This document shows, piece by piece, positions 13,595 through 23,900 of a stretch of DNA of 23,900 bases. Each line of letters begins with the position of its first letter. Within the stretch, counting starts at the first letter, position 1. The stretch covers positions 1 through 23,900 of the IMG/VR virus record IMGVR_UViG_2778261223_000025; one strand, given 5' to 3'. The translations under genes were made by a program, and so were the position numbers. A model generated the notes under the pieces. The model was not told the origin of the DNA, made no database searches, and saw only the letters and a program-made list of their open reading frames with translations. This DNA comes from a virus. Lineage: Duplodnaviria; Heunggongvirae; Uroviricota; Caudoviricetes.

Positions 13595-14866
13595 ATGGCT
13601 AGTTGGCAACAAGGAATCAACTCAGGCGGCTTTCTTGCTGGTATCGGTGGGCAAAACTCAAATGCGCCAAAGGCAAGTGATGTAAGTGAGGCGTTGGCCT
13701 ATATTCGCCAGAACAACGAAATGGAGCGCTCAGGTCGCAATAACATCGGCCTTCAGGCGTTGCAGGGGCCTGGTAGTGTCGCTCAAACATATCAAGCCGC
13801 AAAGCAACAGGAAGCGGGTGCTGCATTCCAAAAAGAATATGCGGCAGCCATCCAGTCAGGTGATCGGCAGCAGGTGCGAGATCTGATGACCAAATATCCT
13901 GGTCAATTAGAGAAGATTCAGTCTGGTATGAAGTGGGCAGACGAAGACCAGCGCAATTCTATCGGCACCTTAGCGGCTGGCGCACGCCTTGCGTCATCGT
14001 CTCCAGAAGCAATGCAATCATGGCTGCAAAACAACGCCAAGGAACTGGCGCGCGTCGGTGTTGACCCTAACAGCGTTGCTCAGATGTATCAGCAAAACCC
14101 TTCAGGATTTGGTGAGTTTGTTGATCACCTTGGAATGGCTGCTCTTGGTCCGATTGATTACTTCAATGTTCAGGACAAGATGGTTGGTCGCCAGCAGGAT
14201 CAACAAAGAATTAACGAAACAATCCGTAATAATGACATGACAAATGCCAGAGGGTGGGCAAGCAACAATATTGCGCAACAAAATGTCAATCTTCGTCGGA
14301 TGGAATTAGAGGACAAGAAATACGACAGACTCATCGCAAATGAAACTAATGCCTTAAAACTTGCTGAATTGCAGGACAAGAGATTGCAGAATCAGCAAGC
14401 TATGGAGCAGGCAAAGCGAGATAAGGCCGATGCGTACAACTCTGGAATGGATAATCTCTCCAGAACGATAGAGACGGCTACAAAAGTTCTTAATAGCCCA
14501 GGATTCACGGGATATTTCGGAACAAACCTAAACCCACTATCGAGTAGATTCATTCCAGGAACAGAGGCTGCTGATACAGAAACTCTGGTTGACACACTGA
14601 AATCTCAGGGATTCTTATCTGGCATTCAGCAGATGAAAGGGATGGGGGCTTTAAGTAATGCCGAGGGGCAAAAGGTAATGGATGCTATTGGTAGTTTGTC
14701 CCCAAATCAGTCTGAAAAATCAGCCAGAGCAGCTATCAAAACAATCATAAAAACCACTGAGATGGCTCAGAAACGTATGCAACAGAAATACGGGAAGGAC
14801 ATACAACCGTCTCAACAGCAGCTTTCTGATGATGACCTGATTAATAAATATCTCGGAGGGCAGTAA
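13595..14866 (+). CDS. 20: Ejection protein, gp20-type
   Basis: 423 aa at the position of P22 gene 20; aaggtggg Shine-Dalgarno-like motif; diverged from P22 (size differs). Confidence 0.65.
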
Positions 14867-16980
14867 TGACCTATAGTCGCGAACAGTTGATGACGGCGTT
14901 AAGGAATGCTGATGCTGCCGGCGATACTGAGGGAGCACGTCGCATTGCTCAGATGCTGTCTTCTGGTGATCAATCCACTCAAAACCAATCGCAGCCAGAA
15001 GAACAATCTCTGGTAGGAAAAGCCACTGACTGGCTCACTGGTGGTCAAAGCGCAGGGCAAATTGCAGAACAGGCTGGCCGTGGTCTGGTAAACATACCAT
15101 TTGACGTATTGCAGGGTGGCGCAAGTCTGATTAATGCAATCAGCCAGGGGCTTGGTGGCCCCAAGGTTTTGGATGATGTCTATCGTCCAGTCGATCGACC
15201 GACAGACTCTTACGCACAAGCCGGTGAAACAATTGGTGGGTATCTCCTGCCAATTGGCACAGCGGCAAAAGCTGCTGGAGCGCCAGCAAAGCTCGCAGGA
15301 GACATCGGTTCCGCAGGAAACATGATTGCCGGTTCTCTTGCTGATGCTGCAAATCAGGAGGGTGATTTTGCACAAAATGCTGCCATTAACGGTGGTATCA
15401 ATATTGGTGCTCAAGGCGTTCTTTCAGGTGTCGGGCGCGTTATTGCGCCAAGGGTTTCACAGGCTCTTGGTGGTGCAGCACTGAATTCTGCTAATGATGT
15501 TTCCAGGATGGCAAAGTCAGGTGCTGGGCGTCAGTCAATTGCCAGTCAGGCCGCTAATGTGTCCGAAGATGTAGCAAAAGCGGCTGAGTCTGCTGGAATT
15601 GATATAAACGCATTAACACCAGGAATGCGATCTGGAAGTCGTGGAATTGCACAAGCCGAAGGCGCATTGGCATCAACACCAGGGATTGTTCAGGATGCCC
15701 ATCAGGCAGCATTTAACGAAATATCATCAAAGTTAAGTCGAAACCTTGATGAATTTGGGGCCGCATCTGGAACGGCATCAGAAAAAAGTGCGGCTATAAA
15801 ACAAAGGATTCTTCAAAATCTTGATCAGATGAAGGATGCTGAGCGCGCGGCATGGGATGACGTGCGGTCAACAATGCCAAATCAAAAAGCAAGAATGCTA
15901 AATGGTAATGCCGTTATTCAGGCAGAGCGATCTGCTGGCATACCGCTTACTCCTGAAATGAAACAGTTTGTTCAGGCAAACAATCAAGGTGGAGTAACAT
16001 TTGATGGCATGAAAGCATGGAGAGCGAAATTTGCTGATGCGGAGCAAAAATATAAGCGTAGCGGAGAGGCAAATGCGGCAAGGAGAGCAGGGGAAATACG
16101 TCGGGCAATTACTGATGATATGCGCACAATGGCGGAAAACGGCGGATTTTTTGATGACTGGCAAAAAGCTAATGATCTGTCTAAAGCGAGGCTATCCGCA
16201 CAAGAGAGTGCAGAGTCTGTTTTTGGGCGTGATTTGGCAACAGATGCACTGATTACGAATGGAGTAAAATCTCTTCAATCATCGTCAGCTAAAGGTCTTA
16301 ATGGTCCTGCTGGATTCCATTCTATGATCCGCGCGCTGCCAGAATCAGAGCGTGTTCCTGCTATATCATCAATGTTGCAGGATGCTATCTCGCATGGTGT
16401 ACGTGGTGGCAAATCTGATGCAGCAGGAATTAACCATATCGCAGAGATACTCACTCCACAAAATGTAAAAGCCATTAGCATATATTCCTCAGAACTCGGA
16501 AGAATTGCTGATGCATATGGCACTCTTGCAAGAGCAGCAGTGAAACCTCAGCAGTATATTGAAAGAACAGGGAGAACTGCCAATGTACTACGCGATCTGG
16601 ATGCCGGTTTATCCAACGTCACATCAACAGTGTTAAATGCAATTGCCAACTCAACATCAGGTGCCATTGTTGGTGGAGCAGGAGGGGGCATTGCAGGCGC
16701 TGCCGCAGGTGCTTTAGTTGGCGCCGGGTTAAAAGGTGCTGTATCTAAAATTGCCACCACGCGTAGCGGTCGATATGCGATAGAGAAAGCAGTTCAGGAA
16801 GCCACGAAAGCAGTAAGAGCTGGCGGAAGTAAAGAAGCATTAGCGGCGGCTGAACGCAGATTTATGGCAAATAAAGCCGCCGTAAAAGCAATACGCGATG
16901 CTATTGGTAGCGATGAATTCAATCGCTTGTCGAGAGCTGGTATTGTCGCCTCGTTAAGCGGTATGAATGAATATGAATAG
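14866..16980 (+). CDS. 16: Ejection protein, gp16-type (extended, 704 aa)
   Basis: Last gene of the morphogenetic block by synteny; start overlaps the gp20 stop (TAATG); Gly/Ala-rich hydrophobic segment near the C-terminus. Confidence 0.7.
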
Positions 16981-16982
16981 CT

Positions 16983-17366
16983 TTATCTAATGTTGCTGCT
17001 ACTGTTGCATGTGACGGTATTCCCAAATCCTGAATTGCAGTTTGTATATGTGTCAACGCGTGTTGGGTAAGGTTGAGTTATAACAGGCTGGCGCGCTTTT
17101 TGCTCGATCGCTTGCATTGTGTTTACAGCCTGATAATTCAATAAAGCCTGCTGGAATGCTTGGCTTTGTGCTATTTGTTGGGCTTGTTCTTGGCTTTGTA
17201 ATTGAACATAAAGATTCTGAAGCTCAAGTCTTGCCTGTGCGTCACTTATCTTGCCTTGATCGACACCTTGCCCGAGCATCTTCGCAGCAAGGACATACAG
17301 CTTAGGTGTTGGTGCTGATGCCATGCGTGAGTCGTTCTTCACGCTGGCATCAAGGCAATTAGCCAT
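16983..17366 (-). CDS. Hypothetical Q-rich coiled-coil protein, probably a lipoprotein whose signal peptide is encoded upstream of the first ATG
   Basis: 127-aa ORF from the first ATG; the same frame is open upstream to 17507 and encodes (I)KKSLLIIPLLLAG-C, a lipoprotein-type signal peptide, with no in-frame ATG/GTG/TTG; ATA codons at 17478-17480 and 17466-17468. AT-rich. Confidence 0.55.
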   Translation of the reverse strand: MANCLDASVKNDSRMASAPTPKLYVLAAKMLGQGVDQGKISDAQARLELQNLYVQLQSQEQAQQIAQSQAFQQALLNYQAVNTMQAIEQKARQPVITQPYPTRVDTYTNCNSGFGNTVTCNSSSNIR

Positions 17367-17493
17367 ATCACTAAGCTTTGGATAGCGTTGCTCGCAACTT
17401 GCTTGGTAGTCACTTACTTTTGCGCATCCAGCCAGCAGAAGCGGGATAATTAATAGTGATTTTTTTATAAAGTTATTTATAAAATCCTTTCTA

Positions 17494-17808
17494 TTATTTA
17501 TCAGAAGTTAGATTGTAATAATTGGTATAAGCTGAAATTGACTTCTGGCATGCTTCAAGAAATTCCTGTGGATTCATTCCTAGTCTTGCTTGCTCTGTGG
17601 TCAGAAAACGCTGTAAGAACTCATCTCCGCCAGGCATTTTTGTTGATTCTTGAAATGTTGCCATTTGTTTGATTGTGCCGCACATGCCAGCAAATTTCGA
17701 AGTTATCATGAGTTCTTGCAGGCCTTTAAGATCGCCATTATCTGATTTTGGTTTGGCGAAAACTATTGTAGAGAAGAACAATATTAACAAAATAGCGATA
17801 CGTTTCAT
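17494..17808 (-). CDS. Hypothetical small secreted protein with Sec signal peptide
   Basis: 104 aa; N-terminus MKRIAILLILFFSTIVFA followed by KPK; start ATG overlaps the mnt stop (ATGA), implying translational coupling; AT-rich; no family recognised. Confidence 0.6.
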   Translation of the reverse strand: MKRIAILLILFFSTIVFAKPKSDNGDLKGLQELMITSKFAGMCGTIKQMATFQESTKMPGGDEFLQRFLTTEQARLGMNPQEFLEACQKSISAYTNYYNLTSDK

Positions 17809-18056
17809 TTTTCACTGTTGCCATGCATACATTTTAACTTCTCAACCTCATGCTCAAGCTCTATCAACCGCGATGCTATAGTTGCAAGATCTAGTGCTTG
17901 AATATGTTTATTTTTTTCAGTCCATGCCTCAAGTGCTGCTACCATCTCAGCATTTAATGAACGAGAATTAGCCTCAGCCAGTTCAATAAGACGTTCCTTT
18001 ATCTCTACAGGAAGCCTCAGATTCACTTGAGGGTTTTTGTACTTACGATCAGACAT
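17805..18056 (-). CDS. mnt: Mnt-like ribbon-helix-helix repressor (immI region)
   Basis: 83 aa from the ATG at 18056 (track ORF starts at an upstream GTG); N-terminal RHH-like motif and C-terminal coiled coil; divergent from arc-ant as in P22; same length as P22 Mnt. Confidence 0.72.
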   Translation of the reverse strand: MSDRKYKNPQVNLRLPVEIKERLIELAEANSRSLNAEMVAALEAWTEKNKHIQALDLATIASRLIELEHEVEKLKCMHGNSEK

Positions 18057-18084
18057 CGGCACATCCTGAATAATTTTTTACCAC

Positions 18085-18113
18085 AGGATATGTAGGTATC
18101 TATTGACTATCAA
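18085..18113 (-). promoter_or_regulatory. Candidate Pmnt promoter
   Basis: Minus-strand TTGATA, 17-nt spacer, TATCCT, about 30 nt upstream of the mnt ATG; overlaps the divergent Pant -35. Confidence 0.3.
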
Positions 18114-18131
18114 TGCGTACCTAAATACTAT
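18103..18131 (+). promoter_or_regulatory. Candidate Pant promoter driving arc-ant
   Basis: TTGACT, 17-nt spacer, TACTAT on the plus strand about 30 nt upstream of arc; a 6-bp inverted repeat tgtatg/cataca (18131-18149) and a direct repeat atgcgtacc (18113-18121, 18134-18142) are operator candidates. Confidence 0.4.
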
Positions 18132-18160
18132 GTATGCGTACCACATACAAAGGAGCAAAA

Positions 18161-18307
18161 ATGAAAGTTAAGACATTAAGGATGCCAGAATGGCTGGAAA
18201 AGGCTTTGGAGCAGTCCGCGAAAAAGGATGATCGGTCGTTCAGTAATGAGGTATTGAGGAGACTAAAGGAGTCAGTAGCTAAGGATGGAATTGTTTGTCC
18301 AGAATGA
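18161..18307 (+). CDS. arc: Arc-like ribbon-helix-helix repressor (48 aa; below the ORF track's length cutoff)
   Basis: ATG at 18161 with AGGAG 6 nt upstream; MKVKTLRMPEWLEKALEQSAKKDDRSFSNEVLRRLKESVAKDGIVCPE; size and position match P22 arc, upstream of ant. Confidence 0.68.
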   Translation: MKVKTLRMPEWLEKALEQSAKKDDRSFSNEVLRRLKESVAKDGIVCPE

Positions 18308-18373: not shown

Positions 18374-19303
18374 ATGAAAAGTATAGCAACAGCAGTATCT
18401 ACTATCAACGTGCCATTCCACGGCGCAGAGCTTTATGTCGTCAATCACAACGGTGAGCCGTACACCCCAATGAAACCTATCGTTGAAGGTATGGGTATGG
18501 ATTGGGCTTCACAGTTTACGAAAATAAAGCAACGGTTTAAAACCTCCATTGTGAAAATCACAATGCAGCTTCCTGGTGATGAACAGTGCCGTGAGATTAT
18601 TTGTTTGGCACTTCGCAAACTTGCTGGCTGGCTGCAAACCATCAGTCCAAACAAAGTCCGCCCTGAAATCCGCGACAAGGTAATCCAGTATCAGGAAGAG
18701 TGTGACGATGTGCTCTACGAGTACTGGACTAAAGGCCATGTAGTTAACCCACGCAAAGCTAAAAAGGCGTTGCCGGGTAAAATCACCACTGAACAGCAGG
18801 AAGCCATTAAACAACTCGTCATGAGTCGCGGTCAGTCTCTGCCAAAAGAAAAACAGGCGAAGGCAATGATTACCATGTGGTCGTCGCTGAAATCTCATTT
18901 TGGGTGTTCATACAAAGAAATCAGCGATGAGCAGTTTACCGAAGCTCTGTCACTTGCAGCTCGCGTTCCGCTTGAAGGCGAGTTAATCGGCAAACAAGAG
19001 AAGAAAGCAAACGAGCTTTCTGCAAAAGAAGCAAACAGCCTTGTATGGTTATGGGATTATGCCAACCGCTCACAGGCATTATTCCGCGAACTGTATCCGG
19101 CGCTAAAACAAATTCAATCGAACTATTCAGGCAGATGTCATGACTGTGGTTATGAGTTCTCCCGTATTATCGATATGGCGAGAGACGTTTTAATCAATCA
19201 CTCACGAGATGTTGATATCAATGAGCCAGACGGACCAACGAATCTTTCCGCATGGATGAGACTTAAGAATAAAAAATTACCTCCTTCAGTACATAACTAC
19301 TGA
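18374..19303 (+). CDS. ant: Antirepressor Ant
   Basis: 309 aa (P22 Ant about 300); N-terminus has the typical antirepressor look; follows arc and precedes the tailspike as in P22 immI. Confidence 0.8.
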   Translation: MKSIATAVSTINVPFHGAELYVVNHNGEPYTPMKPIVEGMGMDWASQFTKIKQRFKTSIVKITMQLPGDEQCREIICLALRKLAGWLQTISPNKVRPEIRDKVIQYQEECDDVLYEYWTKGHVVNPRKAKKALPGKITTEQQEAIKQLVMSRGQSLPKEKQAKAMITMWSSLKSHFGCSYKEISDEQFTEALSLAARVPLEGELIGKQEKKANELSAKEANSLVWLWDYANRSQALFRELYPALKQIQSNYSGRCHDCGYEFSRIIDMARDVLINHSRDVDINEPDGPTNLSAWMRLKNKKLPPSVHNY

Positions 19304-19403: not shown

Positions 19404-21533
19404 ATGACAGACATTACAGCCAATGTGATTGTATCTATGCCTTCGCAACTCTTCACTATGGCGCGTTCTTTTAAAGCGGTTGCCAATGGCAAAATTTATA
19501 TCGGTAAAATTGACACTGACCCGGTAAATCCTGAAAACCAGATTCAGGTTTATGTGGAGAACGAAGACGGTTCTCACGTTCCTGTTTCGCAACCAATCAT
19601 CATTAACGCTGCTGGATATCCGGTATATAACGGACAGATTGCCAAGTTCGTAACTGAGCAAGGCCATTCCATGGCTGTATATGATGCGTATGGTGCGAAG
19701 CAGTTCTATTTTCCTAATGTGCTGAAGTATGACCCTGACCAATTTCAGTTCACGCTCTCGTCAGACACTGGCGCAAATCTTGTCGGCATCAAGAGAACTG
19801 GACTGCCAAATAATAACTCTACTACTGTTGGTGCTTACTATCAGACAACACCTATCAACGCGGTAACAGATTACGGAATGAAAGGGGATTTCGACCCGTC
19901 AACTGGATTTGTTAACGGAACGAATAACCGTTCTGCACTTCAACAATTGATGGATGATCTGGTAAATATCGGTGGAAACAAAACTGTAACCATTCCTCCG
20001 GGTAACTATTACTTCAACTTTGACGGTAGCACTAATCCTGGTGGTGTTGGGGTTATGTGGGGAAGGGTCGGTGCAGGGTTAAAGAATGTCACATTCCTGT
20101 GCTATGGCGCCACATTTTACTCTGGGAGCATTGGCAGACTTAACGGCATATTCAGCGCTAATTATGGTGTAAGGATAAAAGGCTTGAGAGTGATAGGGTT
20201 CGGCGGCGGAACGCTCGCTCCTTCACGAGAAAGGGATGCTATCTTTGCTCTTGCCTACAACTGCTGTGGGGTAACATTTGATGAGTGTTACTTTGCTAAC
20301 AGCATGGGGGACTGCGTTTATCTTGGTGGCAGTCTTGATGACGGCTCTATAACTGGATTATTTTGCAGGGATATCGCTTTTAATGGCTGTACTTTAAAAG
20401 AAAGATACGGGGATGGTATTAGATCTTACTACAGCGGATCTAGGTCAAGGATGGCTATTGCTGTTATCGACTGCGTTGGTCTCAGGATTGATAACTGCAA
20501 AATAGTAGGCGGAATAGACTTCGAACCAAACGCAACAAACCAGCGCCTGCAGAATATGATGGTAGGTAATACCAGGTTCCATGCAGGAAATGTCCTTGCA
20601 TACACTGGAACAAACCCATTTTACGAGGAGCAAATCAATAGCGGAACTCAGGTTATACGTGGAGACATCCGATTCCAGACGCGAGCGGGTGGGGTCATCA
20701 CTCAGAATATTCATATATCTAACGTATCATTCGACTACGGATGCATCAGGCAGACATCTCTTGGTATAGCTGACGTTATTTATGAAAACATAAGAATGCG
20801 CAGGGGTATATTGGTGGTTGGTTCTGACTCAGGCACAAACTTCAACCCATCTGCAAACTTCAATGATGTTTATGTTGATCTGGCTCTTAACGGTTCAGAT
20901 GATGATATCTTTGAGTTGAATGGGTCAGGCACAACACCTCCTACATTGCCAGCAGTAGTCATGTTGATACAGGGAAATCTTACATACGCAAGATTTAATG
21001 GGATAAGTGGAGGGAATACCATCGGTGCATTTAGTTACCTGTTTTATGCAGATCCAACACACACAGCTGGTGATGCGGGGAGGAGCATTTACGCAAACTG
21101 CAGCATACTTGGCGGTAACCTTTACAACTACACTATCCCGGATAGCAGTCAGGAACTTGGAAACACATCTATGCCAGCCTCCGGAGTTGCCTTTACAAAA
21201 TACCGTAGGATTAATACTGACCTAATCATGCAGTCGGTTGGTGCTCTAAGCATATCCGCAAGCGGTTCAATAGACTGGAACGCATTCAGAACAAGCAAAT
21301 TGGCAGTAACTGCTACCACTACAGGCCTGCAAATATCAGGGATTGTTAATGGCCCTATGGTTGGTGCTGAGGTTCAGATAAGGAATAGTGGATCAAACCC
21401 CATAATTCTGGCTCACAGTACATCTTTCTATCTTAAAGGAACAACTAGTGCCACCCTTGACGATACGAGAAAGGTGGTGACGTTCCAGTACATCTCTTCA
21501 GGAGTATGGACGGAGATATACCGGAACTTTTAA
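19404..21533 (+). CDS. 9: Tailspike protein with P22-type N-terminal head-binding domain and a divergent receptor-binding domain
   Basis: 709 aa; the first roughly 110 residues match the conserved P22/HK620 tailspike N-terminus from memory; the rest is G/N/S/T-rich, consistent with a beta-helix, and differs from the P22 and HK620 domains I can recall. Confidence 0.9.
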
Positions 21534-21574: not shown

Positions 21575-21935
21575 TTCCCATCCCTAAAGACAATGAACTT
21601 TTAATAGACGAAACCGCACACCAGACTGATGGCGGAGAAGGTGATAAGAGTGACAATTGGAGGAAGTGCGCATCTATCAGCAGCCCATCCAATAGTAGCA
21701 CTCAGTGTCCCCATGAACCCGACATATAACATGTAGCGCATCGTTGTAGTCGATGTTTTGAATGTGAATCTTGCATTCGCGAAGAAGCTAAAGCTCACAG
21801 CCACAACGAAACCTGCGAAGTTTGCCAAAGCCTGATTGGTATGCTCGGCATAGATACATACACCAAAAACCACCCAGTGTATAAGTGTGTTCAGCACACC
21901 AATCGAGGTGTGTACTTTGCAAATAGCTTTAACAT
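21571..21935 (-). pseudogene. gtrA: gtrA (bactoprenol-glucose flippase) pseudogene with frameshift and premature stop
   Basis: ATG at 21935 gives MLKLFAKYT then stop after 14 codons; GtrA continues (SIGVLNTLIHWVVFG...) in another frame after a 1-nt insertion in an acacacc run; in-frame TAA at 21601-21603 is followed by 9 sense codons (KFIVFRDGK) up to the ATGA junction; repaired length about 120 codons. Confidence 0.72.
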
Positions 21936-22400
21936 TTCTTATATCAGGTAATAATCAAAGTCATGAAGTCTATCATCCAAGTCTCAATCGATCGATGACT
22001 TGCTGTGGTTGATGAGACAAAACTGATGCACACAAAGCTTTGCGCTGGATTGCAAGGCTTTGTACTCTTCGATAGTGGTTAAGGCGGTTCACTCCACCTT
22101 TTCATCAATCCAGTCCGCCCACCACTGCATCATTTCTCTGCGCTTATCGTGGCAGATGCCTCACTATCACACGGTGATGGTTCATTACTGGTTTGCATAA
22201 TGGATAGAGAACTGAGGATAAAAGATATCCCAAAACCCAAAAATCTCATCTTTAGGATTTGCAGAAAGGGAGGCGTGAACAAATACCTGCGCATGAAAAC
22301 GGAACTAGTCCAGATGTGATGTTTGTGGTGATCACATACATCATTAACGATGCTCGTTATGGTGAGTTTGATGATTACCCACTGAAGTGAAAATTGTGTT

Positions 22401-22424
22401 GTGTACCAAATTGCGTACCAAACT
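22401..22424. repeat. Imperfect tandem 12-bp direct repeat in the junction region upstream of dacD
   Basis: gtgtaccaaatt / gcgtaccaaact, matching at 10 of 12 positions. Confidence 0.4.
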
Positions 22425-22727
22425 AAAATCACAAATCATGAAACCCTTGTTCATGGCGGTTCTCAGGGGTGTTGCGCGTAATCGTGAAACAAAAAGGTAG
22501 ATTGTTGCTTACCGTCATTCATCATTAGGTTAAATCCGTTATTTCTGCTATCTGCCAGAGTATCAAATATCACCGTGCTAATCAGCTTTAGCGCGACAAT
22601 TTGACAGCGAGTGGCAACAAATCATGTCAGATAAAAATGAGAGGGTAGTCACATTTTCTTGCACTTTATTCCAGCCAGTTCATAAGTATTTCCGTAAAAA
22701 GAACAGCTATTTGAAACTCCTGAGGGT

Positions 22728-23900
22728 TTGCTGTTGAAACGCCGTCTTATTATTGCTGCTTCTTTGTTCGTTTTTAACTTATCGTCTGGTTTTGCGGCGG
22801 AAAACATTCCTTTTTCACCTCAGCCTCCAGAGATTCATGCCGGGTCCTGGGTATTGATGGATTACACCACCGGTCAGATTCTCACCGCGGGTAATGAGCA
22901 TCAACAGCGCAATCCCGCCAGCCTGACAAAGCTGATGACGGGCTATGTCGTGGATCGCGCTATCGATAGTCATCGCATTACGCCAGACGATATTGTCACC
23001 GTGGGGCGCGATGCGTGGGCGAAAGATAATCCGGTGTTTGTCGGTTCTTCACTGATGTTTTTGAAAGAGGGCGATCGCGTATCGGTACGTGATTTAAGCC
23101 GTGGTTTAATTGTGGATTCCGGAAATGACGCTTGTGTTGCTCTGGCTGACTATATTGCCGGTGGGCAACGGCAGTTTGTTGAAATGATGAACAACTATGC
23201 CGAGAAGCTGCATCTCAAGGATACGCATTTTGAAACAGTGCATGGTCTGGATGCACCTGGCCAGCATAGCTCGGCTTATGATTTAGCCGTGCTTTCTCGC
23301 GCTATCATCCACGGCGAGCCCGAGTTTTATCATATGTACAGTGAGAAAAGCCTCACCTGGAACGGTATCACCCAGCAAAACCGTAACGGGTTATTGTGGG
23401 ATAAGACCATGAATGTTGACGGCCTGAAAACGGGTCATACTTCTGGTGCCGGGTTTAATCTTATTGCTTCGGCTGTAGACGGGCAGCGTCGCCTCATTGC
23501 AGTGGTAATGGGTGCTGACAGCGCAAAAGGTCGTGAGGAAGAGGCAAGAAAATTACTGCGTTGGGGGCAACAAAACTTTACTACGGTGCAAATTTTGCAC
23601 CGTGGGAAAAAGGTCGGAACGGAACGCATCTGGTATGGCGATAAAGAAAATATCGACCTGGGAACGGAACAAGAGTTCTGGATGGTGCTACCGAAAGCCG
23701 AAATTCCACATATCAAAGCCAAATATACCCTTGATGGTAAAGAACTCACCGCGCCAATTAGCGCCCATCAGCGGGTAGGGGAAATTGAACTTTACGACCG
23801 TGATAAACAGGTGGCGCACTGGCCGCTGGTTACCCTGGAATCTGTCGGGGAAGGCAGCATGTTTTCCCGCCTGAGTGATTATTTCCACCATAAGGCCTGA
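22728..23900 (+). CDS. dacD: D-alanyl-D-alanine carboxypeptidase DacD (PBP6b), host gene
   Basis: 390-aa ORF recognised as E. coli DacD, with signal peptide and SxxK motif (ASLTKLMT); the track start is a TTG at 22728 and a TTG at 22734 (MKRR...) is an alternative; stop at 23898-23900. Confidence 0.93.
   Translation: MLLKRRLIIAASLFVFNLSSGFAAENIPFSPQPPEIHAGSWVLMDYTTGQILTAGNEHQQRNPASLTKLMTGYVVDRAIDSHRITPDDIVTVGRDAWAKDNPVFVGSSLMFLKEGDRVSVRDLSRGLIVDSGNDACVALADYIAGGQRQFVEMMNNYAEKLHLKDTHFETVHGLDAPGQHSSAYDLAVLSRAIIHGEPEFYHMYSEKSLTWNGITQQNRNGLLWDKTMNVDGLKTGHTSGAGFNLIASAVDGQRRLIAVVMGADSAKGREEEARKLLRWGQQNFTTVQILHRGKKVGTERIWYGDKENIDLGTEQEFWMVLPKAEIPHIKAKYTLDGKELTAPISAHQRVGEIELYDRDKQVAHWPLVTLESVGEGSMFSRLSDYFHHKA

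Follow-up and report, generated by a model that had tools for sequence, protein, structure and literature searches.

The superinfection exclusion protein SieA of phage P22 is encoded between genes 16 and 9, and is a polytopic protein of the inner membrane that has 3 or 4 transmembrane helices, lacks a signal peptide and contains the motif FxRYPxEAxxFNK (Leavitt et al. 2024, PMC10883804). Phages and prophages also encode small exclusion lipoproteins with a type II signal peptide that modify the envelope, such as Cor of phi80/N15 and Llp of T5. With regard to unusual start codons, infC starts at AUU, and this codon is conserved and autoregulatory. When initiation was measured from all 64 codons in E. 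coli, the near-cognate codon AUA gave 1-2% of AUG in an sfGFP screen and 0.02-3% of AUG in NanoLuc constructs (Hecht et al., bioRxiv 10.1101/063800). Here we describe a prophage lipoprotein gene that lies in the position of sieA and in which the codon at the start position is ATA. Comparison with relatives shows that a G-to-A change has removed its ATG start codon.

The lipoprotein gene and its surroundings

The window, by which we mean the whole stretch of 23,900 nucleotides that was analysed, is a P22-like (Lederbergvirus-type) prophage of E. coli. Its late operon is apparently intact and includes lysis genes, terminase, portal, scaffold, coat and gp7/20/16-type ejection proteins. The right end of the prophage adjoins chromosomal dacD (21900-23900), and the top identity of this flank to complete E. 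coli genomes is only 97.6%. Coverage of the window by any one complete E. coli genome reaches at most 73%, so the window is a novel mosaic that is built from known modules. An Rfam match to the int-alpA RNA (RF02996; 42 bits, with the gathering score at 35.8) is found at 2262-2324 on the plus strand, in the interval that separates the lysis genes from the small terminase gene; at the lipoprotein locus Rfam gave no RNA family. The features of the region of interest, immI, and its neighbours are as follows.

14866-16980, plus strand: gene for a gp16-like DNA transfer protein, convergent with the lipoprotein gene
16983-17468, minus strand: lipoprotein ORF of 161 codons plus stop, a member of phrog_6067, with ATA as codon 1
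17494-17808, minus strand: orf104, encoding 104 aa with a Sec-type signal peptide (MKRIAILLILFFSTIVFA-KPK), phrog_19844
17805-18056, minus strand: mnt-like Arc-family repressor gene, the first of the leftward immI operon, with ATG 18056 according to the annotation of relatives
18085-18113, minus strand: promoter-like site TTGATA-17-TATCCT upstream of mnt, from a consensus scan
18103-18131, plus strand: promoter-like site opposing the mnt one, from a consensus scan
18134-18307, plus strand: arc
18374-19303, plus strand: ant
19404-21533, plus strand: tailspike gene

The lipoprotein gene lies in the interval bounded by the gp16 ejection-protein gene on one side and the tailspike gene on the other, the homologues of P22 genes 16 and 9, and the annotation of relatives agrees with this. 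The mnt-like gene is a 252-nt CDS in relatives, where it is annotated as "Arc family DNA-binding protein" or "Mnt", and it matches PF03869 on Logan contigs. The layout of the two facing promoter-like sites resembles Pmnt/Pant of P22, though the sites are consensus matches only and such matches are no commoner in this region than in shuffled sequence. The stop codon of mnt and the start codon of orf104 overlap by 4 nt (ATGA), and the stop codon of orf104 lies 25 nt upstream of codon 1 of the lipoprotein gene. Because of this tight spacing, mnt, orf104 and the lipoprotein gene look like one leftward operon that is expressed from the prophage. In relatives the product of orf104 is the hypothetical protein WP_000820795.1, and the function of phrog_19844 is unknown. 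This small gene is present beside the lipoprotein gene in only about 12% of loci.

Thus the lipoprotein resembles SieA of P22 in its slot downstream of mnt in the leftward, prophage-expressed immI operon and in its size of about 160 aa. Unlike SieA, however, it is a lipoprotein, with no transmembrane helix predicted past the signal peptide. The motif FxRYPxEAxxFNK has no match in the window or in any of the 141 lipoprotein-bearing loci, a weak negative result since these loci differ in length and the motif is loosely conserved. We considered whether the lipoprotein is SieA and ruled this out, since the motif is missing, there are no transmembrane helices, and the AlphaFold2 model has a soluble helical domain after the signal peptide.

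The frame of the lipoprotein gene, on the minus strand, opens at 17507 directly behind a TAA (17510-17508) and ends at the TAA at 16985-16983. It reads LLINNRKDF-I-NNF-I-KKSLLIIPLLLAG-C-AKVSDYQASCEQRYPKLSD-M-ANCLD..., and the mature protein would start C-AKVSDYQ. The elements around its 5' end are listed below.

17445-17502, minus strand: predicted A/U-rich extended hairpin
17485-17490, minus strand: Shine-Dalgarno (SD)-like motif AAAGGA, the same in relatives with ATG
17478-17480, minus strand: first in-frame ATA (Ile), 4 nt after AAAGGA
17466-17468, minus strand: second in-frame ATA (Ile), the mutated start codon, with G>A at 17466 (C>T on the plus strand)
17424-17465, minus strand: rest of the predicted type II signal peptide, with n-region KK, h-region SLLIIPLLL and lipobox
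17435-17424, minus strand: lipobox L-A-G-C, with the predicted acylated Cys at 17426-17424 (Cys15) and Ala as the +2 residue
17364-17366, minus strand: internal ATG (Met35), the sole canonical in-frame start, giving a 127-aa product

The initial annotation, made from the sequence of the window, had placed a lipoprotein signal peptide upstream of the first ATG in this frame and without a canonical start codon, and our analysis bears out both points. The frame matches phrog_6067 over its full length (E 9.8e-110, 364.6 bits, residues 1-161 against profile positions 1-161). The charged n-region KK is followed by the hydrophobic stretch SLLIIPLLL, in the same layout as in about 85 homologues, and by a lipobox of the PROSITE PS51257 type with an invariant Cys. 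Since the frame of 161 codons fits the family end to end and the N-termini of the homologues are conserved, we regard the signal peptide as real and not as a chance resemblance. By the +2 rule of E. coli, Ala at +2 leads to Lol-dependent sorting to the outer membrane. Because the +2 residue is Ala here, the normal precursor is predicted to be lipidated at Cys15 and then directed to the outer membrane.

What is missing from the window is a usable start codon ahead of this signal peptide, where ATA is found instead. There are zero in-frame ATG, GTG or TTG codons between 17507 and 17367, and the ORF listing accordingly starts at 17366 with 127 aa. The ORF is otherwise intact, free of frameshifts, premature stops and private amino-acid changes. 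It had also been expected that standard gene callers would miss the signal peptide, and this is what happens on both public contigs that carry the ATA allele, where the 127-aa ORF from the internal ATG is called.

The start codon in related loci

Two alternatives had been put forward for the ATA codons, namely that the gene normally initiates at a non-canonical codon (ATA/ATT) or that an ATG was changed to ATA. Alignment with homologous prophages favours the second. At the position of the second ATA (17468-17466), ATG is found in 134 of 134 related loci, and the window is the sole ATA. These loci (L001-L134) comprise 100 from IMG/VR, 27 from metagenomes and 7 annotated ones from phages and E. 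coli chromosomes, and the pattern scan of the metagenomes permitted any triplet at the start position. The exact upstream sequence of the window is common to 16 of the 134 loci, every one with ATG at this position.

Complete phage and bacterial genomes give the same picture. By megablast against phage genomes, three phages carry the gene, namely Escherichia phages vB_EcoP-720R6 and Gally and Salmonella phage VSe13. The homology starts exactly 1 base before the second ATA, and all three phages read ...TAAGGAGAGTTAATCAT-ATG-AAAAAATCACTG... at this point. The arrangement of orf104 and the lipoprotein gene seen in the window is found in 18 complete E. coli genomes. In strains O104:H4 2011C-3493, 203740, EC17GD31 and MS14384, the upstream sequence AAAGGATTTTATAAATAACTTT is identical to that of the window and is then followed by ATG. 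In these genomes PGAP annotates a CDS of 486 nt from that ATG, and in the O104:H4 genomes its product is named "lipoprotein" (RefSeq WP_000749286.1, 161 aa). These WP_000749286.1/phrog_6067 relatives (O104:H4 2011C-3493, 720R6, Gally and VSe13) have the same gene as the window, with 161 codons and the same position and signal peptide, and they differ in codon 1, which is ATG in the relatives and ATA in the window. A 56-mer across the site has a match in 17 complete E. coli genomes with exactly 1 mismatch each, and a perfect match, which would indicate the ATA allele, is found in none of 5,426 complete E. coli genomes. A scan of genome contigs with the pattern of the start region gave no match, which is expected because that database holds one genome per species. 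The ATA allele can be recognized by the 33-mer AACTTTATAAAAAAATCACTATTAATTATCCCG.

The sequences ahead of the start codon fall into two context classes, and the breakpoint of this mosaic lies exactly at -1/-2 of the ATG (window 17466-17470 compared with L001-L134). The first class, in 118 of the 134 loci, reads TAAGGAGAGTTAAYYAT-ATG and has a strong SD. The second class is made up of 16 loci and the window, in which orf104 is followed by AAAGGATTTTATAAATAACTTT ahead of the start, which is ATG in the loci and ATA in the window.

Since all relatives have ATG there, codon 17468-17466 is the ancestral start, and the window carries a G>A transition at 17466. A gene that normally initiates at ATA or ATT is not what the comparison points to, since a non-AUG start is conserved in none of the 134 relatives. 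Neither is a start at the first ATA behind AAAGGA, because the intergenic sequence around this ATA is not conserved and 118 of the 134 loci lack it. The gene shares with infC an AUN codon at the start position, but the AUU of infC is conserved, whereas the AUA of the window is confined to one lineage whose relatives all have AUG. With ATA in none of the 134 relatives and none of the 5,426 complete E. coli genomes, the window carries an ordinary start-loss allele of one rare E. coli lineage and not a conserved unusual start codon.

Consequences of the ATA codon

Taking these data together, we think it highly probable that the window carries an accessory lipoprotein gene of a P22-like prophage whose start codon was lost by a G>A change, and that the allele is a recent null or a strong hypomorph. 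In its normal form the gene starts at ATG, encodes a precursor of 161 aa with a type II signal peptide, and is probably transcribed together with mnt and orf104 from the mnt promoter that is active in the prophage. In the lineage of the window, the single G>A at 17466 converted ATG to ATA. Because AUA gives about 0.02-3% of AUG and no SD is well placed, the output of exported lipoprotein is expected to be strongly reduced, by about two orders of magnitude (~100-fold or more), or abolished. The allele would thus be an incipient pseudogene. Residual initiation at the AUA at 17468, or at that at 17480 behind AAAGGA, could give some lipoprotein.

The leader of the gene bears on how much initiation might remain. 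AAAGGA precedes the first ATA by 4 nt and the ancestral start by 16 nt, a spacing that is favourable for neither. The first ATA at 17480 is a possible weak near-cognate start, though it is not the ancestral one. In the hairpin predicted at 17445-17502 (MFE -13.3 kcal/mol, z = -3.2), the stop codon of orf104 belongs to the outer 5' arm, an internal loop contains the SD-like motif, and the inner stem has the start codon on its 3' side (17471-17463). For the ATG allele the same structure is predicted at -13.4 kcal/mol; the G>A turns a U-G pair into a U-A pair with no energy change. This hairpin rests on a folding prediction, and covariation is uninformative here since the relatives are nearly identical. 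Because the stop of orf104, the SD-like motif and the start codon come together in it, the hairpin may act as a translational-coupling device, which would point to coupled translation of orf104 and the normal lipoprotein gene. Coupling would still require a start codon that is accepted by the initiator tRNA and IF3.

Other routes into the frame were considered and rejected. Entry by a +1 frameshift at the end of orf104 was dismissed by inspection, since GAU-AAA-UAA offers no good +1 slippery site and the relatives with ATG need none. Use of the in-frame ATT and ATC at 17450-17445 would lose the charged n-region, and the in-frame CTG at 17504 lies inside orf104 and has no SD; as near-cognates, none of these codons is any better than ATA.

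The alternative that survives best is that AUA at 17468 or 17480 is a functional and selected start, giving a deliberately low, tuned-down level of lipoprotein, perhaps with coupling to orf104. AUA does initiate measurably as a near-cognate (Hecht et al., bioRxiv 10.1101/063800), the orf104 stop lies 25 nt upstream with a predicted hairpin that could couple the two translations, and polymorphic start codons are a known means of tuning expression in E. coli, one case being lacI GTG/ATG (PMC11445065). However, the documented cases of tuning involve GTG and TTG (10-100% of AUG) and not AUA, both spacings from AAAGGA (~4 nt and 16 nt) are unfavourable, and ATA is absent from the 134 relatives and the 5,426 complete genomes. 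The intact ORF, in which the other private changes are synonymous, also agrees with a selected start, but its weight depends on the time that has passed since the change. Compared with 15 relatives of the same context, the window has 4 private alleles in the 1080-nt block from mnt to the lipoprotein gene, all of them transitions:

18061: T where relatives have C, in the mnt 5' leader
17466: A where relatives have G, in the start codon
17391: GAA>GAG, synonymous
17022: GGA>GGG, synonymous

Four private substitutions in 1080 nt leave too little time for decay, and the intactness of the ORF is thus uninformative. Since the ORF is intact and its other private changes are synonymous only, the start loss looks recent. 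The lack of decay past the start codon would be equally expected under continued selection on a weakly expressed gene, and at such low divergence a recent loss and a gene still under selection are indistinguishable. On balance we regard a deliberately selected AUA start as improbable. That the ATA allele is alive in the broader sense, with a low level of lipoprotein made via AUA and possibly aided by termination-reinitiation from orf104 and the hairpin, is a little less improbable but still unlikely. If this were true, the lineage would have a naturally tuned-down outer-membrane lipoprotein in the SieA slot, which may be an exclusion or envelope-modifying factor.

One of the private alleles also affects the ORF listing of mnt. 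The C>T at 18061 places a GTG in frame, 6 nt ahead of the mnt start codon (ATG 18056), and because of this new GTG the Mnt ORF in the window is listed as 85 aa, compared with the 83 aa annotated in relatives.

Returning to our preferred reading, a start codon lost by mutation, this requires that the ATA is a real allele. A sequencing or assembly error in a genome that truly has ATG could be suspected, since the changed base adjoins an A6 homopolymer (ATGAAAAAA > ATAAAAAAA) and the allele is otherwise unique among all relatives. An exact look-up of the 127-aa product, however, found it on 2 contigs, in the Logan assemblies of SRA runs SRR10970594 and SRR10990793, which are 100% identical to the window over 5189 nt and 4657 nt, respectively, with the ATA included. 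Since two separately assembled read sets share this base within 4.6-5.2 kb of perfect identity, an assembly artefact is very unlikely. The three further private transitions in the block are also what is expected for a genuinely distinct lineage, and we give an error of any kind very little credence. Both Logan runs may be clonal with the source of the window; they exclude an artefact but say nothing for an old or widespread allele. The same amino-acid sequence with Met1 (P0098) is found on 49 public E. coli contigs, compared with 2 for the truncated call.

The last alternative, that the 127-aa protein from ATG 17366 is a functional cytoplasmic, signal-less isoform with a role of its own, has in its favour that this is the sole canonical ORF and the one reported by gene callers, but we consider it extremely doubtful, since there is no SD-like purine run upstream of this ATG (ccaaagcttagtgatATG), no intact homologue starts there, and Cys15 and Cys25 are lost while the remaining conserved cysteines point to a disulfide-bonded periplasmic protein. 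Homologues that truly start at the internal Met were looked for as evidence against the upstream signal peptide, and no intact one was found. The two database entries with an internal Met that were examined (P0065 and P0054) are pseudogenes of full-length genes interrupted by nonsense mutations, which retain the upstream ATG and the lipobox. Because the 127-aa product is without the export signal and one conserved cysteine, it is unlikely to function.

The lipoprotein family and its possible role

A protein search found 97 homologues in Enterobacterales, in the genera Escherichia, Citrobacter, Serratia, Klebsiella, Cronobacter, Pectobacterium, Yersinia, Tatumella, Morganella, Providencia and Xenorhabdus. 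About 85 of them are full-length, and all of these have M-[KRN]-[KR], a hydrophobic stretch and [AVST][GSA]-C. The mature N-terminus CAKVSDYQ..CE is conserved across the homologues, while the sequence of the h-region drifts. In an alignment of 55 sequences (A2), the four cysteines Cys15, Cys25, Cys38 and Cys154 never vary, and conservation of G14 is 90% or more. The invariant cysteines fit a disulfide-bonded periplasmic protein. Since the lipobox Cys and Cys25, Cys38 and Cys154 are invariant while the h-region drifts, export appears to be essential to the family.

In Pfam, NCBIfam and PADLOC there is no family for the lipoprotein or for orf104, and the only profile matches are far below the cut-offs (GspK, 19 bits vs a cut-off of 130; T3SS needle, E 0.11). 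None of the anti-phage defence HMMs in PADLOC-DB matched either protein at E <= 1. In PHROGs, the lipoprotein and orf104 belong to phrog_6067 and phrog_19844, both of which are families of unknown function. The AlphaFold2 model of the lipoprotein, made from a 55-sequence alignment, has a mean pLDDT of 65. Residues 18-96 form a confident helical domain; the model also has a Q-rich helix of low confidence and, at the C-terminus, a small beta-hairpin with the last cysteines. Foldseek searches with this model against PDB and BFVD gave no match at E <= 0.001. The likeness to Cor and Llp is a functional analogy only; the similarity of the window protein to Cor is limited to the signal peptide (phrog_1119, E 0.078, residues 1-29), with no match in fold. 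Given its place in the sieA slot of a prophage-expressed operon, an envelope-modifying or exclusion role for the lipoprotein is a reasonable guess.

The value of these findings is chiefly for annotation. The lipoprotein family is already annotated, though uncharacterised, and the start loss is of an ordinary kind. Where gene callers give a 127-aa "hypothetical protein", the locus is a start-mutated copy of a 161-aa lipoprotein gene, and it deserves to be flagged as a pseudogene or a start-loss allele. In addition, the ATA lineage would be a natural knock-down that is usable as a comparison strain for the role of these conserved cysteine-rich lipoproteins in the SieA slot of P22-like prophages of Enterobacterales.

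The start loss would be one more knock-out of an accessory prophage gene, in a family that also has independent nonsense alleles. In the Symbiopectobacterium sp. Eva_TO locus (L137, 1390-1500; P0065), a nonsense mutation GGA>TGA is found inside the lipobox, and in three other loci (L138-L140; P0054) a nonsense mutation CAA>TAA is found after CAKVSDY. For these alleles gene callers give internal-Met products of 126-127 aa, which mimic that of the window. The two independent nonsense pseudogenes show that the lipoprotein gene has been lost repeatedly. In a further E. coli protein of 167 aa (P0096), the lipoprotein signal peptide and the first ~30 mature residues are fused to an ERF-type recombinase domain (PF04404); this is probably a chimera that arose by recombination or assembly.
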